Positions 32,296 through 48,186 of a stretch of 64,000 nucleotides of DNA are shown piece by piece. The notes under the pieces are model-generated. The model was not told the origin of the DNA. It searched no databases and worked only from the letters and a program-made list of their open reading frames with translations. Every line of letters begins with the position of its first letter. The first letter of the stretch is position 1. The stretch comes from Candidatus Eiseniibacteriota bacterium (GTDB lineage Bacteria; Eisenbacteria; RBG-16-71-46; CAZAMP01), in NCBI GenBank assembly GCA_965224245.1, contig OZ245046.1, forward strand, positions 2,432,001-2,496,000. Reading direction: 5' to 3'. Position numbers and translations under genes: made by a program.

Positions 32296-34071
32296 ATGCT
32301 CGACCGCCCCAGGCCGCCTCGTCCACCGCGGACACGCGGCGCGTGGATCGGCCTCTCGCTCGGCGCCCTCCTGGCGCTGGCAGGGCCGGCGTCACGACCC
32401 GCGGCGCTCGCCGAGACCCTCACTCTCACCCCCGAGTGGTCGGTCGACACCGGCGGATGAATCTTCGCCAACCCCGAGGTCTCGGGGGATCGGGTCTACG
32501 TCGGATCGTGCAACGGGCGGTTCCAGTGCCGCGACCTCACCGACGGCTCGATCCGGTGGAGCTACGACGTCAGCGCCGACGGCGAGGCCCGGAGCTTCCA
32601 CGGGAACATGCTGCTCCAGAAGAACGTGATCCTCGTCGGCACCGACCCCGAGGACGGCTACCTGTACGCGTTCGACCCGCAGACGGGCGAGGTACGCTGG
32701 AAATGGTGGGCCGCTCCCGGGATCGGTACCGACCTGGTCGCGGGGCCCGATCTCGTCTACGCGGTGACGCTGGACGACGTGCTCGTGTGCCTCGACCTGG
32801 AGACCGGCGCCGAGCAGTGGCGCAGCGTCCCCGAGACCACCGTCAGCTCCATGCTCACGCGCGGATCCACCCCGGCGCTCGAGGACGAGACGATCGTCTT
32901 CGCCGGCGTGGCGGGCCGCGTCCAGGCGCTGGACGCGCGGACCGGCGCCGCCGGGTGGTCCACCGAGGTCGGGGGGCCGGTGACCACGTCGGTGGCCCTC
33001 CATCGCTCACGAGCGCTCGTCGGAACCGAGGCCGGCGTGCTCCACGCGCTCGATCGCACCACCGGGACCGTCCTCCGTTCGGTGTCGCTGCCCGGCTCGC
33101 CGCGCGGCGAGATCGTCACGACCGAGGCGGGGCTGGTGGTGCTCGTCGGCGAGGACGGCTGGCGAGCACGGCTGGTCGCGCTGGACGACGATCTGACCGT
33201 CGCGTGGGAGAGTGTCGCCACCGACGGCTCGCTCTGGACGAGCGCCCGCCCGACGCGAGCGGGCCGGTGGATCCTGGTCGGCACGGCCAGCGGCGAGCTG
33301 GCCGCGATCTCGTCCGACACCGGCGAGACCGACTGGACACTCCCGATCGAGCCCATGCGCGACTGGACCGGGGACGGCATCCGGAGCGCCTCCATCGTCG
33401 CCGGCCGCCTCATCGTGGGCACGATCGCCGGGCGACTCACGTCGTATCGACTCCCCCCGGAGATCCTGGCCGGGGCCGGGCCCGTTCGGCGGCCCCGCCC
33501 GCGTCCGGTGGCCATGGCGCCCACGTGAGCCGGCTGACCCGGCGAAGGGTCGCCGCTTCGGGGAAGCGGCCTGGATCACGACTGGACGGTCTCGCTGCGG
33601 TACGTGGATACCGGAACCGATCGGGCTCGCTGGCGTTCCACGATCAACCGGCGCGTGCTGCCGACGCTCTCGCTCGGGATCGAGTTCAACCCGGTCGTCG
33701 GCGAGGTCGGTCCGCTGGTCACGTGGTTCTTCGTCGGTGAGGGGCATGGCACACCCGCCGTCTTCGTCGGCACCAGCTCCGATCGGATCGGAACCGACGA
33801 GGGCGAGCAGAGCTACTACGCGACGGCGACCAAGCGGCTGCCGTGGTGGCCGGTCTCGGCCTACGTGACCGCCAACTACTCCGAGGCGGACGAGTCGTTC
33901 AACGTGCCCTTCGGGGGCACGATCAACCTCACCGAGACGCTGTCGATGCGTCCGATGTACGATGGCGAGCGCACGCATCTGATGGCCACGGCGGCCACCG
34001 AGCGGTTCGCGGTGTCGCTGATCGCAGTCTGGCTGGAGCGGGTCGGCGTCTCGGTCTCCACGGGCTTCTGA
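32296..34071 (+). CDS. Putative triple-selenocysteine protein (591 aa): signal peptide, PQQ-repeat beta-propeller (Sec55), UxxU linker (Sec411, Sec414), C-terminal beta-barrel-like domain
   Basis: Track ORFs 31906..32460, 32608..33528 and 33604..34071 are in one frame, separated only by TGA at 32458, 33526 and 33535. Intervening codons are open and protein-like. A SECIS-like hairpin follows each TGA. Confidence 0.75.
32472..32487 (+). promoter_or_regulatory. Bacterial SECIS-like hairpin for TGA 32458-32460
   Basis: TGA + 11 nt + CCCCGA-GGTC-TCGGGG. Confidence 0.75.
33540..33570 (+). promoter_or_regulatory. Two overlapping SECIS-like hairpins for the UxxU codons
   Basis: CGGCGA-AGGG-TCGCCG (33540-33555) starts 11 nt after TGA1; GCCGCTTC-GGG-GAAGCGGC (33552-33570) starts 14 nt after TGA2. 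Confidence 0.65.
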
Positions 34072-34097
34072 AGGTCTCGACCACGAGGATGGCGTCA

Positions 34098-34769
34098 ATG
34101 CGCAAGCTCGTCCGTCACGCGATCGCGATCGTCGCGGTCGCCGCCTGCACCGCCGTGTTCGCCGATCCCGCCGAGCACCCGGACGAGGCGGTCTGCCGCA
34201 CGTGCGAGATCCGTGGCGGCGGGCACGGTCTCGAGAAGGTCGCCGCACACCGGGAGTACGAGGGCACGTTCTACTACTTCTGTGACCCGGGCTGTGCGGA
34301 CGCGTTCGATGCGTTCCCCGAAGCCTACGCCCACCAGCCCCTCCCGAGGCCGGCCCCCGACGTCACGTTCACCTCGCTCGACGGCTCGTCCGTTCCCCCG
34401 AGCGCGCTTCGCGGGCAGCACGTGCTCGTGGACTTCTGGGCCACGTGGTGCAAGCCCTGCGTGACGAGCATCCCCAAGCTCGTCGAGATCCAGGAAGAGT
34501 TCGGTGAGCGGGGCTTGCGCGTGGTCGGGGTCTCGATCGACGAGATCGAGGCCGATCGCGTCCGTGCGTTCGTCGACGAGAAGAACATGGCGTACACCGT
34601 GGCGCTGGACGGCGGCGACGAGCCGGCCTGGCTGGCCTATCGGGTGGCCGCGATTCCCGCGGCCTTCCTCGTCGATCCCGACGGTCGCATCGTGGCCGAG
34701 TGGAAGGGGGCGGTCGATCCCTCGCGAATCCGGGCCGAGATCGCCGACCGGCTCGGGGGGACGGACTAG
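34098..34769 (+). CDS. Exported YHS-domain + TlpA-type thiol-disulfide oxidoreductase fusion
   Basis: Signal peptide; VCRTC...YEGTFYYFCDPGCADAF YHS/TRASH domain; VDFWATWCKPC, IPAAFLVD. Confidence 0.88.
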   Translation: MRKLVRHAIAIVAVAACTAVFADPAEHPDEAVCRTCEIRGGGHGLEKVAAHREYEGTFYYFCDPGCADAFDAFPEAYAHQPLPRPAPDVTFTSLDGSSVPPSALRGQHVLVDFWATWCKPCVTSIPKLVEIQEEFGERGLRVVGVSIDEIEADRVRAFVDEKNMAYTVALDGGDEPAWLAYRVAAIPAAFLVDPDGRIVAEWKGAVDPSRIRAEIADRLGGTD

Positions 34770-35640: not shown

Positions 35641-35769
35641 CGTCCAGCCATCCCGGACGAGAGCGCTACCGTCCGGTCGCGATCACGCGTCCCGCGACCG
35701 GCGATCACGCCACCGGGACCCGCGCCGGCGACGAGATCCTCGACCGATCGCGATCCAGGAGGCCACGCG

Positions 35770-36381
35770 ATGTCGCCGACCGGGACGTTCGAGATCGCCC
35801 CCAGCGGACGGGCGAGGTGTCGCGGGTGCGGCCGTGCAATCGCCAAGGGCGAGATCCGCTTCGGCGAGCGAATGCCCAATCCCTTCGGTGACGGCGAGAT
35901 GACCCTCTGGTTCCATCCACGATGCGCCGCGTACAAGCGCCCCGAGCCGTTCCTGGACGCCCTGTCCTCGGATACGACTCACTCCGGTGAGCTGTCCGGA
36001 CGCGAGTCCCTGATCGACGCCGCGCGGTGCGGCGCCGCGCATCGCCGGCTACCCAGGCTGAGCGGCGCCGAGCGCGCGCCGAGCGGACGCGCTCGCTGCC
36101 GGTCCTGCCGAACGCTCATCGACAAGCAAAGCTGGCGGTTCTCACTGGTGTACTACGAAGAGGGTCGCTTCGAGCCCGCCGGCTTCATCCACGCGGGCTG
36201 CGCACCGGACTACTTCGAGACGACCGTCGTGACGGAGAGCGCGACGCCTCTCGTGGAGGGCGGCGAGCTTCTCGTGGAGCGCGCCGCACACTTCTCGCAG
36301 CTGGACGACGCGGATCGGTTGGCGCTCGCCGAGGCCGTGGCCGGCGGAGGTCCGTCCACGTCCCCGGTGGCGCTCCCGTGA
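35770..36381 (+). CDS. Tandem PARP-type zinc-finger protein
   Basis: Two copies of ExAPSGRARCxxC...HxxC. Confidence 0.8.
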   Translation: MSPTGTFEIAPSGRARCRGCGRAIAKGEIRFGERMPNPFGDGEMTLWFHPRCAAYKRPEPFLDALSSDTTHSGELSGRESLIDAARCGAAHRRLPRLSGAERAPSGRARCRSCRTLIDKQSWRFSLVYYEEGRFEPAGFIHAGCAPDYFETTVVTESATPLVEGGELLVERAAHFSQLDDADRLALAEAVAGGGPSTSPVALP

Positions 36382-40537: not shown

Positions 40538-41686
40538 CTACTCGCCGAACCAGCGCGACAGCCGCTCGGACTCGAACCGCCGCTTCGCCTCGGCGTGCTC
40601 GGCGGAGACCGACCCGAGCGCGATCTCGGGCTCGGGCTGCGCGAAGAAGTCTCCCTCGACCCGCGTCGCCGTCGAGCGGCCCATCTCGATGAAGCAGAAG
40701 CCCCGGCCGTCGAAAGACCCGGGCATCGCCCGGCCGAGACGGTCGGCGGCGATGGCGGCCGCCACCCGCCGACCCTGGAGCTCGGCGAAGAGCCCGGCCT
40801 TCGGAAGCGGGAGTCCGTTCGCGAGCTCGATCCGCGTGACGTCCCCGATCGCGAAGACGCGCTCGTGCTCGGTCTCGAGCGTCGCGGGTCGCACCGCGAT
40901 CCACCCTCCCGGTCCGGTGAGCCCCGACTCGCTGACCACGGTGGGGACCCGGTGCGGGGGCACCGCCATGATCACGTCGGCGTCCAGCGATGCGCCGTCC
41001 GCGTAGCGAACCCGGCCGGGCTCGACGGCGTCGACCTTCCGCCCCACCTCGAACCGGATGCCCCGCTCGGCGAGCCGTTCGCCGAGCCAGCTCGACCCCT
41101 CGGCGCCGGCGTTCGGGAGCAGCATCGGCTGGAGGGTCGTGACGTGAATCTCCGAGCGGTCACGGAGACCCCGATCCCGGAGGTGCTCGTCGAGGAGCAT
41201 CGCGCACTCGTACGGCGCCGGCGGACACTTGTACGGCGCACCGGCCACGACGATCGCGACTCGACCGCCGTCGAACGTCGCGAGCGCCTCGGCACAGGCC
41301 GGGATCGCATCGGCATCGTAGAGATTGTGTCCGTGCTCGACGAGCCCTGGCACCAGATCGGCGCGCGCGACCGCACCGAGGGCGACGACCAGGTAGTCGC
41401 CGTCCAGCATCTCCGCGTCGGTCCGGATCCGGCGAGCGACCGGGTCGATCGTCTGGACATCGCCGCGCACCACCCGGATCCCCCGCCCGGCCAGCGTCGT
41501 GCGCGAGCGCCGCCCCTCCTCGAGCGTGCCCAGGCCCACGAGTGCCCAGAGCTTTCGGAGGCCGATCATGAACGCGTCGCGGCGATCCACGAGCACGACG
41601 TCGTGATCGTCGCCCAGGAGGCTCCGGAGCTCGGTCGCCACCGTCAGGCCGCCGAATCCACCGCCCAGTATCAACGTGCGTGACAT
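40538..41686 (-). CDS. FAD-dependent oxidoreductase (sulfide:quinone oxidoreductase-like)
   Basis: ILGGGFGG, YKCPPAPYE, FAIGD, LPKAG, GFCFIE. Confidence 0.88.
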   Translation of the reverse strand: MSRTLILGGGFGGLTVATELRSLLGDDHDVVLVDRRDAFMIGLRKLWALVGLGTLEEGRRSRTTLAGRGIRVVRGDVQTIDPVARRIRTDAEMLDGDYLVVALGAVARADLVPGLVEHGHNLYDADAIPACAEALATFDGGRVAIVVAGAPYKCPPAPYECAMLLDEHLRDRGLRDRSEIHVTTLQPMLLPNAGAEGSSWLGERLAERGIRFEVGRKVDAVEPGRVRYADGASLDADVIMAVPPHRVPTVVSESGLTGPGGWIAVRPATLETEHERVFAIGDVTRIELANGLPLPKAGLFAELQGRRVAAAIAADRLGRAMPGSFDGRGFCFIEMGRSTATRVEGDFFAQPEPEIALGSVSAEHAEAKRRFESERLSRWFGE

Positions 41687-44095: not shown

Positions 44096-44674
44096 TCATC
44101 GCGCCGACGACCCCGACGGCGCATGGTCGGTGTTGCGAGTCGCCTCCGGATCGTCCGGGCTCGATGCAGGGGCCGGCATCTCCGGATCGGGACCCGGCTC
44201 GGCGAGCAGCGCGGCGAGCCGGGCCTCGAAGGCCTCGACGTCCTGCGGTCGGAACCCCTCGTGGCGGATTCGAAACGCACCGGTCCGGTCGAAGACGAAG
44301 GCCGTGGGCACCACCTCGAGCCCGAACGCCTTCGCCAGGTCACCCCTGGGATCGCGCAGGACCGGCAGCGTCACCTCGAGAGCCTCGATGAAGCGGTCGG
44401 CGGCCTCGGCGCGGCGGTCCAGGTTCACCGTGACCACGCGGAGTCCGTCGTCGGCACGCTCGGCGGCCAGCGTCTGCATCCATGGAAAGGACGAGCGGCA
44501 CGGCACACACCAGGATGCCCAGAAGTCGACGTAGACCACCTGCCCCGCGTACGGGGCCGGATCGTCGACCAGCGCGAGCACGGCGTCGAGAGAGGGCGCC
44601 GGCTCGTCGGCGGATGCGATGGAGGCTCCCATGGCGAGAGCGCACAGGACGGCGGCGGTGAGACGCGGGTGCAC
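44096..44674 (-). CDS. TlpA family thiol-disulfide reductase (exported)
   Basis: GTG after AAAGGAG; signal peptide; VDFWASWCVPCRSSFP, VPTAFVFD. Confidence 0.92.
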   Translation of the reverse strand: MHPRLTAAVLCALAMGASIASADEPAPSLDAVLALVDDPAPYAGQVVYVDFWASWCVPCRSSFPWMQTLAAERADDGLRVVTVNLDRRAEAADRFIEALEVTLPVLRDPRGDLAKAFGLEVVPTAFVFDRTGAFRIRHEGFRPQDVEAFEARLAALLAEPGPDPEMPAPASSPDDPEATRNTDHAPSGSSAR

Positions 44675-44869
44675 GTGGGCTCCTTTCGCTCGGTGGACGA
44701 CACGGTCGCGAAACCGAAGGCGCGGCGTCACACGCGCGCGCGGCGGCATCGACGCCGCGGGGGCGCGTGCGAGTCGCCGTCACCGACCTGTTGCACACGA
44801 TCCCCCGAGGCGGGGTTCCCGCCGATCGCGGCGTCCTCGCGCTCGGACGCCGACCCCGTGGCGGGCGCC

Positions 44870-46300
44870 CTACCGCACGACGACGATCCGATGCACGGCC
44901 TGCAACAACCCGTTTCGCAGCCCGACGTGATAGACCCCGGGCGCAACCCGGCGTCCCAGGCGATCGGTGCCGTCCCAGAGCACGTCGCCGGCGGCGGTGG
45001 CGATCGGCGAGGCGATCCGCCGGCCCGACGCGTCGACGACGACGGCATCGGCGCCCACCAGCGCATCGCCGACGATGAGATGGACCGCGCCCCGCGTCGG
45101 GTTCGGCGTCAGCGACCGCAGCAGCACCGGGGAGGCCGGCGTCTCGGCGACCGAGATCAGCGGGTCGCCCTCGGCGACGTACACGTTCCAGCTCCCGCTC
45201 GAGTCGTCGCACCACGCAACCGCCACCTCGCCCCCGGAGTTCGTGGTCACCGACGGCTCGCGCACGTCGCGTCCGATCCCCAGCTCCTGATCGAACGTCC
45301 AGGTGCCCGAGAGATTCCAGGCGACGATCAGACGCTCGTCGACCATCGACAGCGACTCGTCCCAGGACTCGTGTCGCCACGCGAGAACCGGCCGTCCGAC
45401 CTGGGTCAGGTGCAGCCACAGCTCCTGCGGCCACTCGAACAGAGTTCCCGTGTGTCCGGTGCCGATCGCGTCGGCGTCGCCGAACGCGCCACCGGTCCCC
45501 GTCGCGACGCTCACCTGGTTGCACGGACACGTGGGCTGCTGGCCGTGCGCGGCCAGCGCCATGGTCCACGTGTTCGGGTCGACGGCGAGATCGAAGCGGA
45601 TACCGGCGCCCTCCATCACCGGCGATGCCGGCTGCCACGTGGTGCCGTCGAACTGGCGTCCCTGCACGCCGGGGAACGCCGCCCCCGTATCGAGCCAGGT
45701 CACCAGCAGTCGATCCTCGGCGTCGACCGGGCTCAGCTCGACGGAGAGTTCACCGATCGGATCGACCGCGATCGGTCCGGCCAGGATCAGCGGCGCGGAC
45801 CACCCCTCGGTGACGAGCTCGGAGAAGAGCACGTGGAAGACGCCGCTTCCCTCGTCCAGCTCGGCCCAGGCCACGTGGGGCCCCGAGGCCTTCGCGGGAG
45901 ACGGATCGATCGGCGTGCCGAGCCCGGCGCTCCCGACCACGTCGGCGTCGTGCCACGTCCCGCTCTTCCAGCTCCGGAAACGAACCTGATCGGCGTCGTC
46001 TGACCAGACGACGTAGATCTCGTTTCACCTGAGACAGGTGTAGTGGTCGAAGTCGTGCCCGACGCCCACGGTCTCGATTGGACCCCATCCCCCCTCGCTC
46101 TGGTCCTGGTGGAGGATCTCGTCGCCTTCCTGCCAGAGCAGGTGCCGGACGTCGAACGCGTCGGTCGTGAGGATGGGAGCCGTCGACGGGATCGGCGTCG
46201 TGGTGTGCTGGGTCTCGATCCACCCGGCCGCCACCGGCGACGAGACCGTCGCCAGGAGCGTGACGACCGCGGCGGCGCCGACGGGGCGTGGCGCGGGCAT
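44870..46300 (-). CDS. Putative selenoprotein (476 aa): secreted beta-propeller-like protein with CxxU (Sec92) and FlgD-Ig/T9SS-like CTD
   Basis: Track ORFs 46025..46300 and 44870..45940 are in frame; the only stop between them is TGA 46025-46027 in HYTCLR-U-NEIYVVW. RBS GAGGAGG, signal peptide, CTD PNPTRG...WDGTDRLGRRVAPGVY. Confidence 0.8.
45994..46013 (-). promoter_or_regulatory. Bacterial SECIS-like hairpin for TGA 46025-46027
   Basis: Minus strand: TGA + AACGAGATCTA (11 nt) + CGTCGTCT-GGTC-AGACGACG. Confidence 0.8.
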
Positions 46301-46560
46301 GGGGTCCTCCTCGGATAGTTGAGCATGCGAGTCGCGGGTCCCGGCCGGGGCCGCGCGAGGAGACCCGACGAGTGTACACCCCCCGCGCGATCGGGTCCGC
46401 CTCGCTCTCGACTACCCGCGTTCGCATCGGCGGGGCGCGCCCCCGCCCGCGACACGGCGGCCGGTGGTCTGCGATAATCACCCCCGTGCATCCACGAGAC
46501 CGCGTCGACGTCCCGGCGGCTCGCCGTCGCCGGCCCTCCCTCGAGCCCGGAGGCATCACG

Positions 46561-48186
46561 ATGATCCGCTCGACCCCGTACCGCGCCGGCGCCGCGCTGG
46601 CCCTGGCCCTCTTCGCAGCAACGGCCCTCGCCGACGACGTGAGGACGCATCTCGAGACCCACGACGGGGGCACGCGCGCGGTCGAGCTCGTGTCACCGGG
46701 CGGCGGCGGTGGCGGGGCCGACACGGGCACCGTCGCTGCGCGCGGGGGGATCGGCGTCGAGTGGCAGCGCACGCTGACCGATGCCGTGTACACGACGTGC
46801 GCGATCGTCGGCAGCCCGGTCACCGACGTGGCCGCGGGTACCGAGCTCAACCCCCCGCGTCAGGCCGAGCTCGTCCCGTCGGTGGGAGACGGCACGCCGA
46901 CCTGGTTCCATCCGGGAACCTCGTTCCGCGTATCCGCCTCCCGCGCCGGTGACGTGATCGCCGGCGTCGACTACGAGTCCGCGACCCAGACCGTCAGCGT
47001 GTACCGCTGGGCGCCGGACTCCAGCACGCCGCTCTGGACCGACACGCTCACGGGCGTGACGCCCGGCTCGTATCGCGCGATCGCGACGTCGGCCGACGGG
47101 TCGACCGTCGCCGTGCTCGTCTCGGTGCAGGCCGGGGGACCGTTCGCCCGGTGTCGCCTGTACGACGCGGCCACCGGCGCGCTGATCGGAGAGCACGACG
47201 GCCCGGCGGGGTTCGGACGCAACGTCTCCATCGGAGCCGACGGTCGATTCGTCGCGTTCATCGGGCTGGCCACCGCGTACGTCGTGGACCGGGACCTCGA
47301 CGCCATCCGCTGGAGCGGCAGCATGGGCGCGACCAACGATCCGATCGCGATCTCCACCGACGGCACGTACCTGGCCTTCGGGTGGACGAGCCTTCAGATG
47401 CGCGCGTGGAACGGCACCGACTACGCCCCCGCGTGGAGCATCGCCGGCGGCAGCTACCAGGTGAAGAGCGTCACGTTCTCGTCGGACAGTGGCACGTTCG
47501 CGGCCGGGTGGTATCGCTCCGACTACCTGCAGAATCGGATTCACCTGTTCGATCCGTCGAGCAGCACCCCGCTGTGGACGCACCTCGACACGCCGGGAAG
47601 CGGCGCGTACCAGGACATCCCCGCCGATCTCGCCCTCACGGCCGGCGGCGAGTATCTGGCCGTCGGATGCTGGGGGGACGCCGCCCACACGAACGACGAG
47701 ATCCGCCTCTACGGCCACGGCTCGCCCGACGCGCTCGGGTCGGTCGGATCGCCGGGCTCGATCTTCGACGTGGACGTGGCGCTGGACGGCGACGGCGTCG
47801 TCGTCACGGCATGCGGCAAGCACGTGCATGCGAACGAGACCGGCCGGGGCGGTGACCTCTTCTCGATCACGTTCACCGAGCCGGTGGCCGTCGGTGACGC
47901 ACCGGGACGACCGCTCGGGCTCGCGATCGACGTGGCCAACCCGCTCCGGGCCGGGGGACGCATCGTGGTGAGCACCGAGCGTGCGACCGACGTCGAGCTG
48001 ACCGTCTACTCGGCGACCGGCCGGCGTGTCCGGGCGCTGGGGTCGGGCATGTTCGACGCGGGACGCCACGAGGTCACATGGGACGGTCGCGACGACGCCG
48101 GGCAGGACGTGGCCGCGGGTGTGTACCTCGTCGAGGGACGGAGCCGAGACGGGAGCGTCACCGCGCGCACGCTCCTCTTGCGTTGA
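46561..48186 (+). CDS. Secreted WD40/PQQ-like beta-propeller protein with FlgD-Ig/T9SS-like CTD
   Basis: Signal peptide; repeated S.DG...A / PLW blades; CTD VYSATGRRV...WDGRDDAGQDVAAGVY. Confidence 0.82.
   Translation: MIRSTPYRAGAALALALFAATALADDVRTHLETHDGGTRAVELVSPGGGGGGADTGTVAARGGIGVEWQRTLTDAVYTTCAIVGSPVTDVAAGTELNPPRQAELVPSVGDGTPTWFHPGTSFRVSASRAGDVIAGVDYESATQTVSVYRWAPDSSTPLWTDTLTGVTPGSYRAIATSADGSTVAVLVSVQAGGPFARCRLYDAATGALIGEHDGPAGFGRNVSIGADGRFVAFIGLATAYVVDRDLDAIRWSGSMGATNDPIAISTDGTYLAFGWTSLQMRAWNGTDYAPAWSIAGGSYQVKSVTFSSDSGTFAAGWYRSDYLQNRIHLFDPSSSTPLWTHLDTPGSGAYQDIPADLALTAGGEYLAVGCWGDAAHTNDEIRLYGHGSPDALGSVGSPGSIFDVDVALDGDGVVVTACGKHVHANETGRGGDLFSITFTEPVAVGDAPGRPLGLAIDVANPLRAGGRIVVSTERATDVELTVYSATGRRVRALGSGMFDAGRHEVTWDGRDDAGQDVAAGVYLVEGRSRDGSVTARTLLLR

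Follow-up and report, generated by a model that had tools for sequence, protein, structure and literature searches.

A gene on the minus strand of a 64,000-nt stretch of Candidatus Eiseniibacteriota DNA (contig OZ245046.1, positions 2,432,001 to 2,496,000; GC content 69.5%) appears to encode an exported beta-propeller of a new selenoprotein family. The whole stretch is referred to here as the window, and all coordinates are positions in it. The gene lies at 44870..46300 and has 476 codons, of which codon 92 is a TGA; we estimate at about 75% the probability that it is a single gene for such a protein, with UGA-92 read as selenocysteine (Sec, U). The evidence that carries this reading is a coding frame that continues through the TGA, the presence of Cys at the same position in most close homologues, the interruption of two other lineages at the same codon, and a hairpin resembling a selenocysteine insertion sequence (SECIS) directly downstream. 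The extent of the gene was assigned from the sequence, from homologues that consist of one open reading frame (ORF), and from the GC content at third codon positions (GC3).

The interrupted reading frame and its homologues

The start codon, ATG 46300, is preceded at a distance of 4 nt by the Shine-Dalgarno-like sequence GAGGAGGA (46305..46312), and the first 25 codons (46226..46300) translate into a typical signal peptide with a basic N-region, a hydrophobic core and a terminal VAA, after which cleavage would be expected. A preliminary description of the window had placed a ribosome-binding site and a signal peptide here, and had followed a frame through C-L-R-TGA into the ORF at 44870..45940; both proposals agree with the sequence. 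The frame reads YTCLR-TGA-NEIYVVW, the motif C-L-R-U occupying 46025..46036 with Cys89 encoded by TGT (46036..46034) and the TGA at 46027..46025. The TGA is the only break, and the 384 codons that follow are open as far as a TAG stop (44872..44870), giving a product of 476 residues with Sec at position 92 (U92).

GC3 changes little across the TGA, from 0.86 in the upstream part to 0.90 in the downstream part. This is the sole TGA in the window that is flanked by 50 open, high-GC3 codons on both sides. When shorter flanks were used, a dozen other TGA sites also passed the coding filter; judged by how they are composed and where they lie, they seem to be antisense frames, or adjacent genes in a common frame. 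Among 35 complete ORFs with Pfam support in the window, 25 end in TGA and 10 in TAG. Genome-wide reassignment of TGA was rejected on this ground: TGA is a normal stop codon here, and a change of code therefore does not explain read-through.

Two protein searches were made with the read-through product as query, Cys being placed at position 92. They gave 630 matches at E <=1e-3, only eight of which reached E <=1e-30; most of the others matched the C-terminal domain (CTD) or single propeller blades. Six full-length close relatives (470-488 residues, 31-46% identity) are encoded by single ORFs that include both halves of the window protein, and their alignments extend from residues 7-27 to residues 457-476. 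N-termini equivalent to the signal peptide are also carried by the homologues. C89 is conserved in all nine close sequences that have the N-terminus. A homology search for CxxC or CxxU at residues 89-92 had been suggested as a check on the preliminary description, and the outcome was favourable: Cys is aligned with U92 in five of the six full-length relatives, in the motifs CLMC, CPVC, CPAC, CLSC and CSVC.

Two further homologues are short. P0052 (90 residues, ending C-W-N-stop) and P0059 (92 residues, ending C-W-T-stop) have signal peptides, and in each the stop falls at the position of U92. They are 38% and 42% identical to the window protein and 40% identical to one another, and the three interrupted forms therefore represent separate lineages. 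Two C-terminal fragments begin at aligned residues 135-137 (P0004) and 187 (P0009); these may be the downstream halves of interrupted genes, or simply genes cut at the ends of contigs. When the 91-residue N-terminal fragment from the window was itself used in a word-index search, nothing but that fragment was returned.

In public protein collections the gene is held only as a 91-residue piece (P0012) and a 356-residue piece (P0002), exactly the two ORFs that gene callers gave. Taken at face value, these would be two separate genes, one for a small secreted peptide and one for a protein starting at GTG 45940. This is very improbable. The larger ORF would begin within blade 2 of the propeller described below and would have no signal peptide, yet it carries a secretion CTD. 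Moreover, both parts form one ORF in six homologues, and the stretch of 84 nt from the TGA to GTG 45940, which belongs to neither piece, codes for residues conserved in the family. The current annotation of the gene as two ORFs is an annotation error.

The hairpin downstream of the TGA

The TGA is followed by an 11-nt spacer (46024..46014) and then by a perfect 8-bp stem (46013..46006 paired with 46001..45994) with the loop GGUC (46005..46002), which begins 19 nt past the TGA. With a 4-bp lower stem, the whole SECIS-like hairpin covers 45988..46019. Spacer, stem and loop are as the preliminary description gave them. With its 4-nt loop starting with GG, its 8-bp stem and the distance of 19 nt, the hairpin agrees with the four-criterion model of bacterial SECIS elements (bSECIS) quoted in a 2026 review (PMC13188914). 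Folding of 43 nt gave -17.0 kcal/mol (z = -2.67), and 4 of 200 shuffled sequences were equally stable; an 81-nt context gave z = -2.18. The minimal hairpin bound by SelB in Escherichia coli fdhF has the same 11-nt distance from the UGA, and its loop likewise contains GGUC.

Three features suggest that the hairpin is more than generic structure in GC-rich DNA. First, the U-A pair that closes the loop comes from TCA, a codon seldom used for Ser (12 of the 498 Ser codons, 2.4%, in window genes). Second, the residue specified by this codon, Ser in the window protein, is Val or Ile in all six uninterrupted homologues, whether of the Cys or the Asp form; judged from the alignment, the TGA-bearing form leaves the family consensus exactly at the point of loop closure. 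Third, the geometry is repeated. Just two sites in the window, the TGAs at 46027 and 32458, combine a TGA with a spacer of 9-13 nt, a stem of 6 bp or more and a GGTC loop, while dinucleotide shuffles gave a mean of 0.285 such sites, with at least two in 9 of 200 shuffles. The two sites had been described as sharing one geometry, and they do share the 11-nt spacer and the GGUC loop; the stem at 32458, on the other hand, has only 6 bp.

The same observations bear on whether the TGA is a lesion. A Cys codon, TGC or TGT, may have become TGA in a pseudogene or through an assembly error, the hairpin having arisen by chance in GC-rich coding DNA. TGA is a single substitution away from both Cys codons, and most relatives carry Cys at this position. 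Generic bSECIS criteria fit 273 of the 1286 TGA triplets in the window (21%), 30 of them with stems of at least 8 bp, and the hairpin taken alone is therefore weak evidence for Sec; it is supporting, not decisive. Rfam gave no match in the whole window at gathering thresholds, nor around the site at E <=10; we know of no broad bacterial SECIS model in Rfam, so this null result says little. No tRNA was found in the window, and no SelA, SelB or SelD domain in the 55 ORFs scanned. Further observations also weigh against Sec decoding. One of the six full-length close homologues has Asp in place of U92 (CRVD), and Cys is wholly missing from this position in distant members of the family. The stops of P0052 and P0059 are presumed to be TGA, and TAA or TAG would also fit. 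Finally, two peptide patterns run against 185,579 species-representative genomes matched 100 stretches, none of which was confirmed as a member of the family.

Several results nevertheless make a pseudogene or sequencing error improbable. Two other lineages, at approximately 40% identity, end at the same codon, and it is unlikely that nonsense mutations struck one codon three times independently. The coding signal stays as strong after the TGA, and there is no second lesion in 384 codons. The hairpin is specific in its GGUC loop, 11-nt spacer and stability, and it includes the rare codon and the departure from Val/Ile at loop closure; the spacer and loop recur at a second in-frame TGA, at 32458. 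On the aligned sequences, Sec at codon 92 is well supported, and 46300..44870 is probably a truly Sec-decoded gene.

Fold, export and neighbouring genes

An AlphaFold2 model was built on an alignment of nine sequences (mean predicted local distance difference test score, pLDDT, 81.1; predicted template modelling score 0.73). It contains 28 strands arranged as seven four-stranded blades, followed by an immunoglobulin (Ig)-like sandwich at residues 394-475. The seven-bladed beta-propeller comprises residues 27-378 (45167..46222), and in the model the N-terminal strand, residues 27-31, probably closes blade 7. Foldseek matched the model to the Photorhabdus PLL/PHL lectins (E = 8e-11, target template modelling (TM) score 0.67), BT3686-type glycoside hydrolases, sialidases and PorZ, all at identities of 10-14%; the matches to the lectins, hydrolases and sialidases had E-values of 8e-11 to 2e-8, probability 1.0 and target-normalised TM-scores of 0.57-0.67. 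The window protein (P0001) itself gave no propeller or BNR match in Pfam at E <=1; BNR_4 was matched by 6 of the 10 large distant relatives that were scanned. The only matches in the ESM Atlas to the ORF as translated under table 11 were look-alikes: hypothetical proteins of candidate phyla in the Fibrobacteres-Chlorobi-Bacteroidetes (FCB) group that carry FlgD_ig, Por_Secre_tail or BNR domains. The model is all-beta, propeller and Ig-like domain together, and does not have a thioredoxin-like fold; no thioredoxin-type Pfam or NCBIfam match was found in the window protein either. These results bear out the earlier suggestion of propeller-like strands in a secreted, non-thioredoxin scaffold.

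The Ig-like CTD (residues 394-476; 44873..45121) is of the type found in FlgD and in cargo of the type IX secretion system (T9SS), an assignment drawn from Pfam, NCBIfam and a family profile. The PNPTRG...WDG...GVY pattern that had been pointed out in this domain is present, as is the TCPC motif discussed below. With the family profile, the CTDs of PorU (6za2, E = 1.7e-6) and PorZ (5m11, E = 3.3e-4) were matched, as was FlgD, and FlgD_ig is matched at E <=0.01 by 9 of 13 aligned family members, two of the 13 being N-terminal fragments that lack the CTD. Against this, the window protein's own CTD scores below the curated cut-offs, with 17.7 against 27 for FlgD_ig (E = 0.0037) and 16.4 against 23 for TIGR04183 (E = 0.0068). 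By sequence, the domain thus resembles the T9SS cargo and FlgD_ig domains, formal membership lying beyond the cut-offs. Pfam scans of the window ORFs recognised no T9SS core genes. Gemmatimonadetes are listed in PMC11285876 among the phyla that possibly have a T9SS. We hold with high confidence that the protein is an exported propeller with a T9SS-type CTD.

In the model, strand A, the innermost of blade 2, ends with C89, and the turn of four residues that leads on to strand B contains U92; pLDDT in the block around the two residues is 93-94. A second cysteine motif, C258-P-C260 within PTCPCN (45521..45529), is in the B-C loop of blade 5, and both of its cysteines are invariant in nine of nine close and nine of nine distant family sequences. 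Standard propeller topology places A-B turns and B-C loops on opposite faces. Because of this, and because blades 2 and 5 are nearly opposite one another in the ring, CxxU and CPC are probably far apart on opposite faces of the modelled protein; the idea that the two motifs might be neighbours is accordingly unlikely on the model topology. The CxxC/U pair is restricted to the close subfamily, C89 alone being found in four of the seven distant members that have the N-terminus. Since CPC is family-wide and CxxC/U is confined to one subfamily, we infer that CPC may serve an ancestral, shared function and that CxxC/U may be a later, subfamily-specific addition.

The gene immediately downstream, on the same strand and 120 nt past the stop codon, encodes an exported TlpA/ResA-like thiol:disulfide oxidoreductase with the motif WCVPC (44096..44749, start codon tentative). 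Pfam matches are to Redoxin (1.6e-16) and AhpC-TSA (3.2e-15); the NCBIfam models ResA, DsbE and TlpA all match below cut-off. Its product is a candidate reductant of the propeller CxxU. The Pfam scan of 55 ORFs gave only two Redoxin/AhpC-TSA genes, this one and another on the plus strand at 34089..34769. Each follows, at a short distance and on the same strand, one of the two propeller genes interrupted by TGA. This arrangement is suggestive of a pairing of propeller and TlpA-like protein.

The second of these propeller genes is on the plus strand at 32296..33528. It encodes a secreted PQQ/BamB-like propeller (Pfam PQQ_2, 1.3e-40) interrupted by a TGA at 32458..32460 (U55). A blade motif spans the TGA, and the hairpin follows with its 11-nt spacer, GGUC loop and 6-bp stem. 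Public collections hold this gene only as a 306-residue piece (P0157). It is followed by a 155-codon ORF without a Pfam match (33604..34071, plus strand), which may belong to the same operon, and then by the gene at 34089..34769, whose product has an N-terminal YHS domain and a TlpA-like part with the motif WCKPC. This site had been put forward as the first selenoprotein of the window. The TGA, spacer and loop are as proposed, and the support is otherwise weaker than at 46027: the hairpin folds no better than shuffled sequences (z = 0.05), and the TGA failed the GC3 coding filter. At E <=1e-10, 47 proteins matched; one was the window's own ORF, and the remaining 46 are remote, none exceeding 37% identity in its best local alignment. 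U55 is covered in 44 of these 46 alignments, many of which align other blades, and Cys is found there in none of the 44, Tyr and Ala being commonest.

A sulfide:quinone reductase (SQR)-like flavoprotein is encoded on the minus strand at 40538..41683. Its best NCBIfam match, to the type III SQR selenoprotein subtype NF049943, scores 163.7 bits where the cut-off is 525; the ORF has no in-frame TGA and, from its sequence, appears to be a non-Sec relative. Related genes at 57-69% identity were found at 34 loci, mostly in Gemmatimonadota: the best, at 69%, is in an unclassified metagenome-assembled genome, and the following ten (63-68%) all belong to Gemmatimonadota, with which the window would tentatively be placed on this evidence. 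None of these 34 loci contains relatives of the propeller, the TlpA-like protein, the PQQ-like protein or P0020, a distant family member, at E <=1e-3. The pairing rests on one window.

The following mechanism can be proposed for the main gene. SelB carrying Sec-tRNA(Sec) would bind the hairpin on the mRNA during translation and insert Sec at UGA-92. The signal peptide would direct the chain across the inner membrane through the general secretory translocon, the exported chain would fold as a seven-bladed, BNR_4-like propeller, and the Ig-like CTD would pass it to the T9SS for release or attachment to the cell surface. C89-x-x-U92, in the tight A-B turn of blade 2, would then act as a redox centre alternating between a selenenylsulfide and the reduced thiol and selenol, and would be held reduced by the exported TlpA-like WCVPC neighbour. 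CPC, on the other face, would retain the older function of the family, to which one subfamily would have added CxxC/U. The catalytic role of CxxU and its coupling to the TlpA-like protein form the least certain part of this scheme, and we advance them tentatively, at somewhat less than even odds. It is doubtful that this bacterium has a wider extracytoplasmic selenium redox system, in which unrelated secreted propellers, one BNR_4-like and the other PQQ/BamB-like, would each have Sec and a dedicated periplasmic TlpA-like reductase.

Sec could also be inserted for a different use. C89 and U92 might form a site for a soft metal or metalloid, such as Cu(I), Hg(II), Ag(I) or As(III), the propeller acting as a trap or chaperone in the periplasm or at the surface and the TlpA-like protein merely keeping the ligands reduced. 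The YHS domain has been linked to copper handling, and one is carried by the TlpA-like protein encoded beside the 32458 candidate; TlpA proteins are, besides, reductants of copper-site assembly proteins. Metal-handling selenoproteins are known, Table 1 of PMC13188914 including MerT-like proteins with C/SxxU, CopZ-like proteins, MbdU and the SO_0444 Cu/Zn transporter. Pfam scans showed no metal-resistance or copper genes beside the main gene, however, the alignment has no conserved cluster of His or Met around the motif, and one close homologue has Asp in place of the second ligand. A metal site, with the TlpA-like protein in this lesser role, is unlikely.

A purely structural use is less likely again. 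C89 and U92 may form a selenenylsulfide that staples the blade-2 hairpin without turnover, the TlpA-like neighbour being unrelated. The motif occupies a tight beta-turn, a setting in which the disulfides of exported proteins usually have a structural role; one close homologue and the distant family manage without a second Cys; and TlpA synteny was unseen outside the window, at the 34 SQR loci. Sec, however, comes at a high cost and is almost confined to reactive sites. A mere staple would also leave aside the position of both Redoxin genes of the 55 scanned ORFs behind the two TGA-interrupted propeller genes, and CxxU and UxxC are described as redox-related motifs in PMC13188914. We accordingly favour Sec at a redox centre over Sec in a staple.

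On its upstream side the main gene is separated by a divergent intergenic region (46301..46560) from a plus-strand gene at 46561..48186. One sigma-70-like site was found in this region, on the plus strand at 46449..46478, and no promoter-like site for the minus-strand main gene was found in 46301..46560. The divergent gene encodes another secreted protein with a FlgD_ig CTD (5.5e-11), the N-terminal part of which has no Pfam match. Elsewhere in the window, an ORF on the plus strand at 35641..36378 has a PARP-type zinc finger (zf-PARP, 5.9e-21), an unusual-looking domain for a bacterium.

Comparison with known systems

The preliminary description regarded the protein as a member of an undescribed family, and comparison with catalogued selenoproteins supports this. 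NCBIfam has many curated selenoprotein families, and none of these models matched the window protein, in which NCBIfam recognised nothing beyond the CTD. Table 1 of PMC13188914, which covers 119 families and subfamilies, includes no beta-propeller, BNR, FlgD-Ig or T9SS-cargo family, and that review nowhere mentions propellers, the T9SS, FlgD, PQQ, sorting domains, sialidases, WD40 or lectins. No paper on a propeller or T9SS selenoprotein was found in the literature by title or abstract, and the word propeller is absent from PMC12013277 and PMC13326102; the supplements of these two papers and of PMC5029168 and PMC8318568 might list further candidate families.

The four-residue motif itself is shared with the CxxU and UxxC selenoproteins of thioredoxin-fold and AhpD-like families (SelW-like, AhpD-like, Prx-SUH and DsbA/DsbG-like; Table 1 of PMC13188914). 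In thioredoxin folds, the CxxC or CxxU motif is located at the N-terminus of a helix. In the window protein it is located in the turn of a beta-hairpin of a propeller, according to the model, and a thioredoxin fold is provided in trans, by the TlpA-like neighbour gene. The chemistry, presumably that of a selenenylsulfide cycling with the reduced pair, would be the same as in those families, and here as there Cys forms are commoner than Sec forms.

In architecture the protein resembles T9SS cargo and components such as PorZ (5m11) and PorU (6za2), which likewise combine a signal peptide, a propeller and an Ig-like CTD; the CTDs of both were matched by the family profile, and PorZ was also matched by Foldseek. 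PorZ differs in having two propellers and in being a component of the T9SS, and the window CTD is closer to Pfam FlgD_ig than to Por_Secre_tail, while falling below both cut-offs. To our knowledge, neither Sec nor CxxC occurs in proteins of the PorZ/PorU type. The overall fold is also that of the PLL/PHL lectins (6rgr, 5c9l), the BT3686-type hydrolases (5muk) and BNR_4 or sialidase-like propellers. Sequence identity to the PLL/PHL and BT3686-type propellers is just 10-14%, and we know of no CxxC/CxxU or CPC motif in these lectins, hydrolases or sialidase-like propellers.

Bacterial selenoproteins are overwhelmingly cytoplasmic or thioredoxin-like, and a propeller scaffold stands apart from them. 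A Sec/Cys pair is a classic marker of reactive cysteines, and it therefore flags a functional site in what has been a family of hypothetical proteins, with a signal peptide, a CPC-motif propeller and a FlgD-Ig CTD; architectures of this kind are frequent among candidate phyla of the FCB group. Should the wider extracytoplasmic selenium redox system exist after all, no T9SS cargo with Sec and no Sec-containing beta-propeller would be known before the window protein, and a catalyst of the selenol/selenenylsulfide type would be placed at the cell surface or beyond it. If the coupling to the TlpA-like protein is real, the two would constitute a two-component system for selenium chemistry outside the cytoplasm.

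The nearest precedent among selenoproteins is a predicted bacterial membrane beta-barrel. Like the window protein, it carries CxxU in a scaffold that is extracytoplasmic, all-beta and not of the thioredoxin type, and it was recognised by Sec/Cys pairs and a SECIS-like hairpin. The two are unrelated in sequence, NCBIfam at E <=1 having given only CTD-type and repeat-type matches, and a membrane barrel differs from a soluble seven-bladed propeller with a secretion CTD. Extracytoplasmic selenoproteins with folds other than thioredoxin are already known, for example the FCYXU TonB-dependent receptor, UshA-like proteins and BtuF. The gene at 44870..46300 would therefore represent a new family or scaffold variant of selenoprotein rather than a new kind of system.

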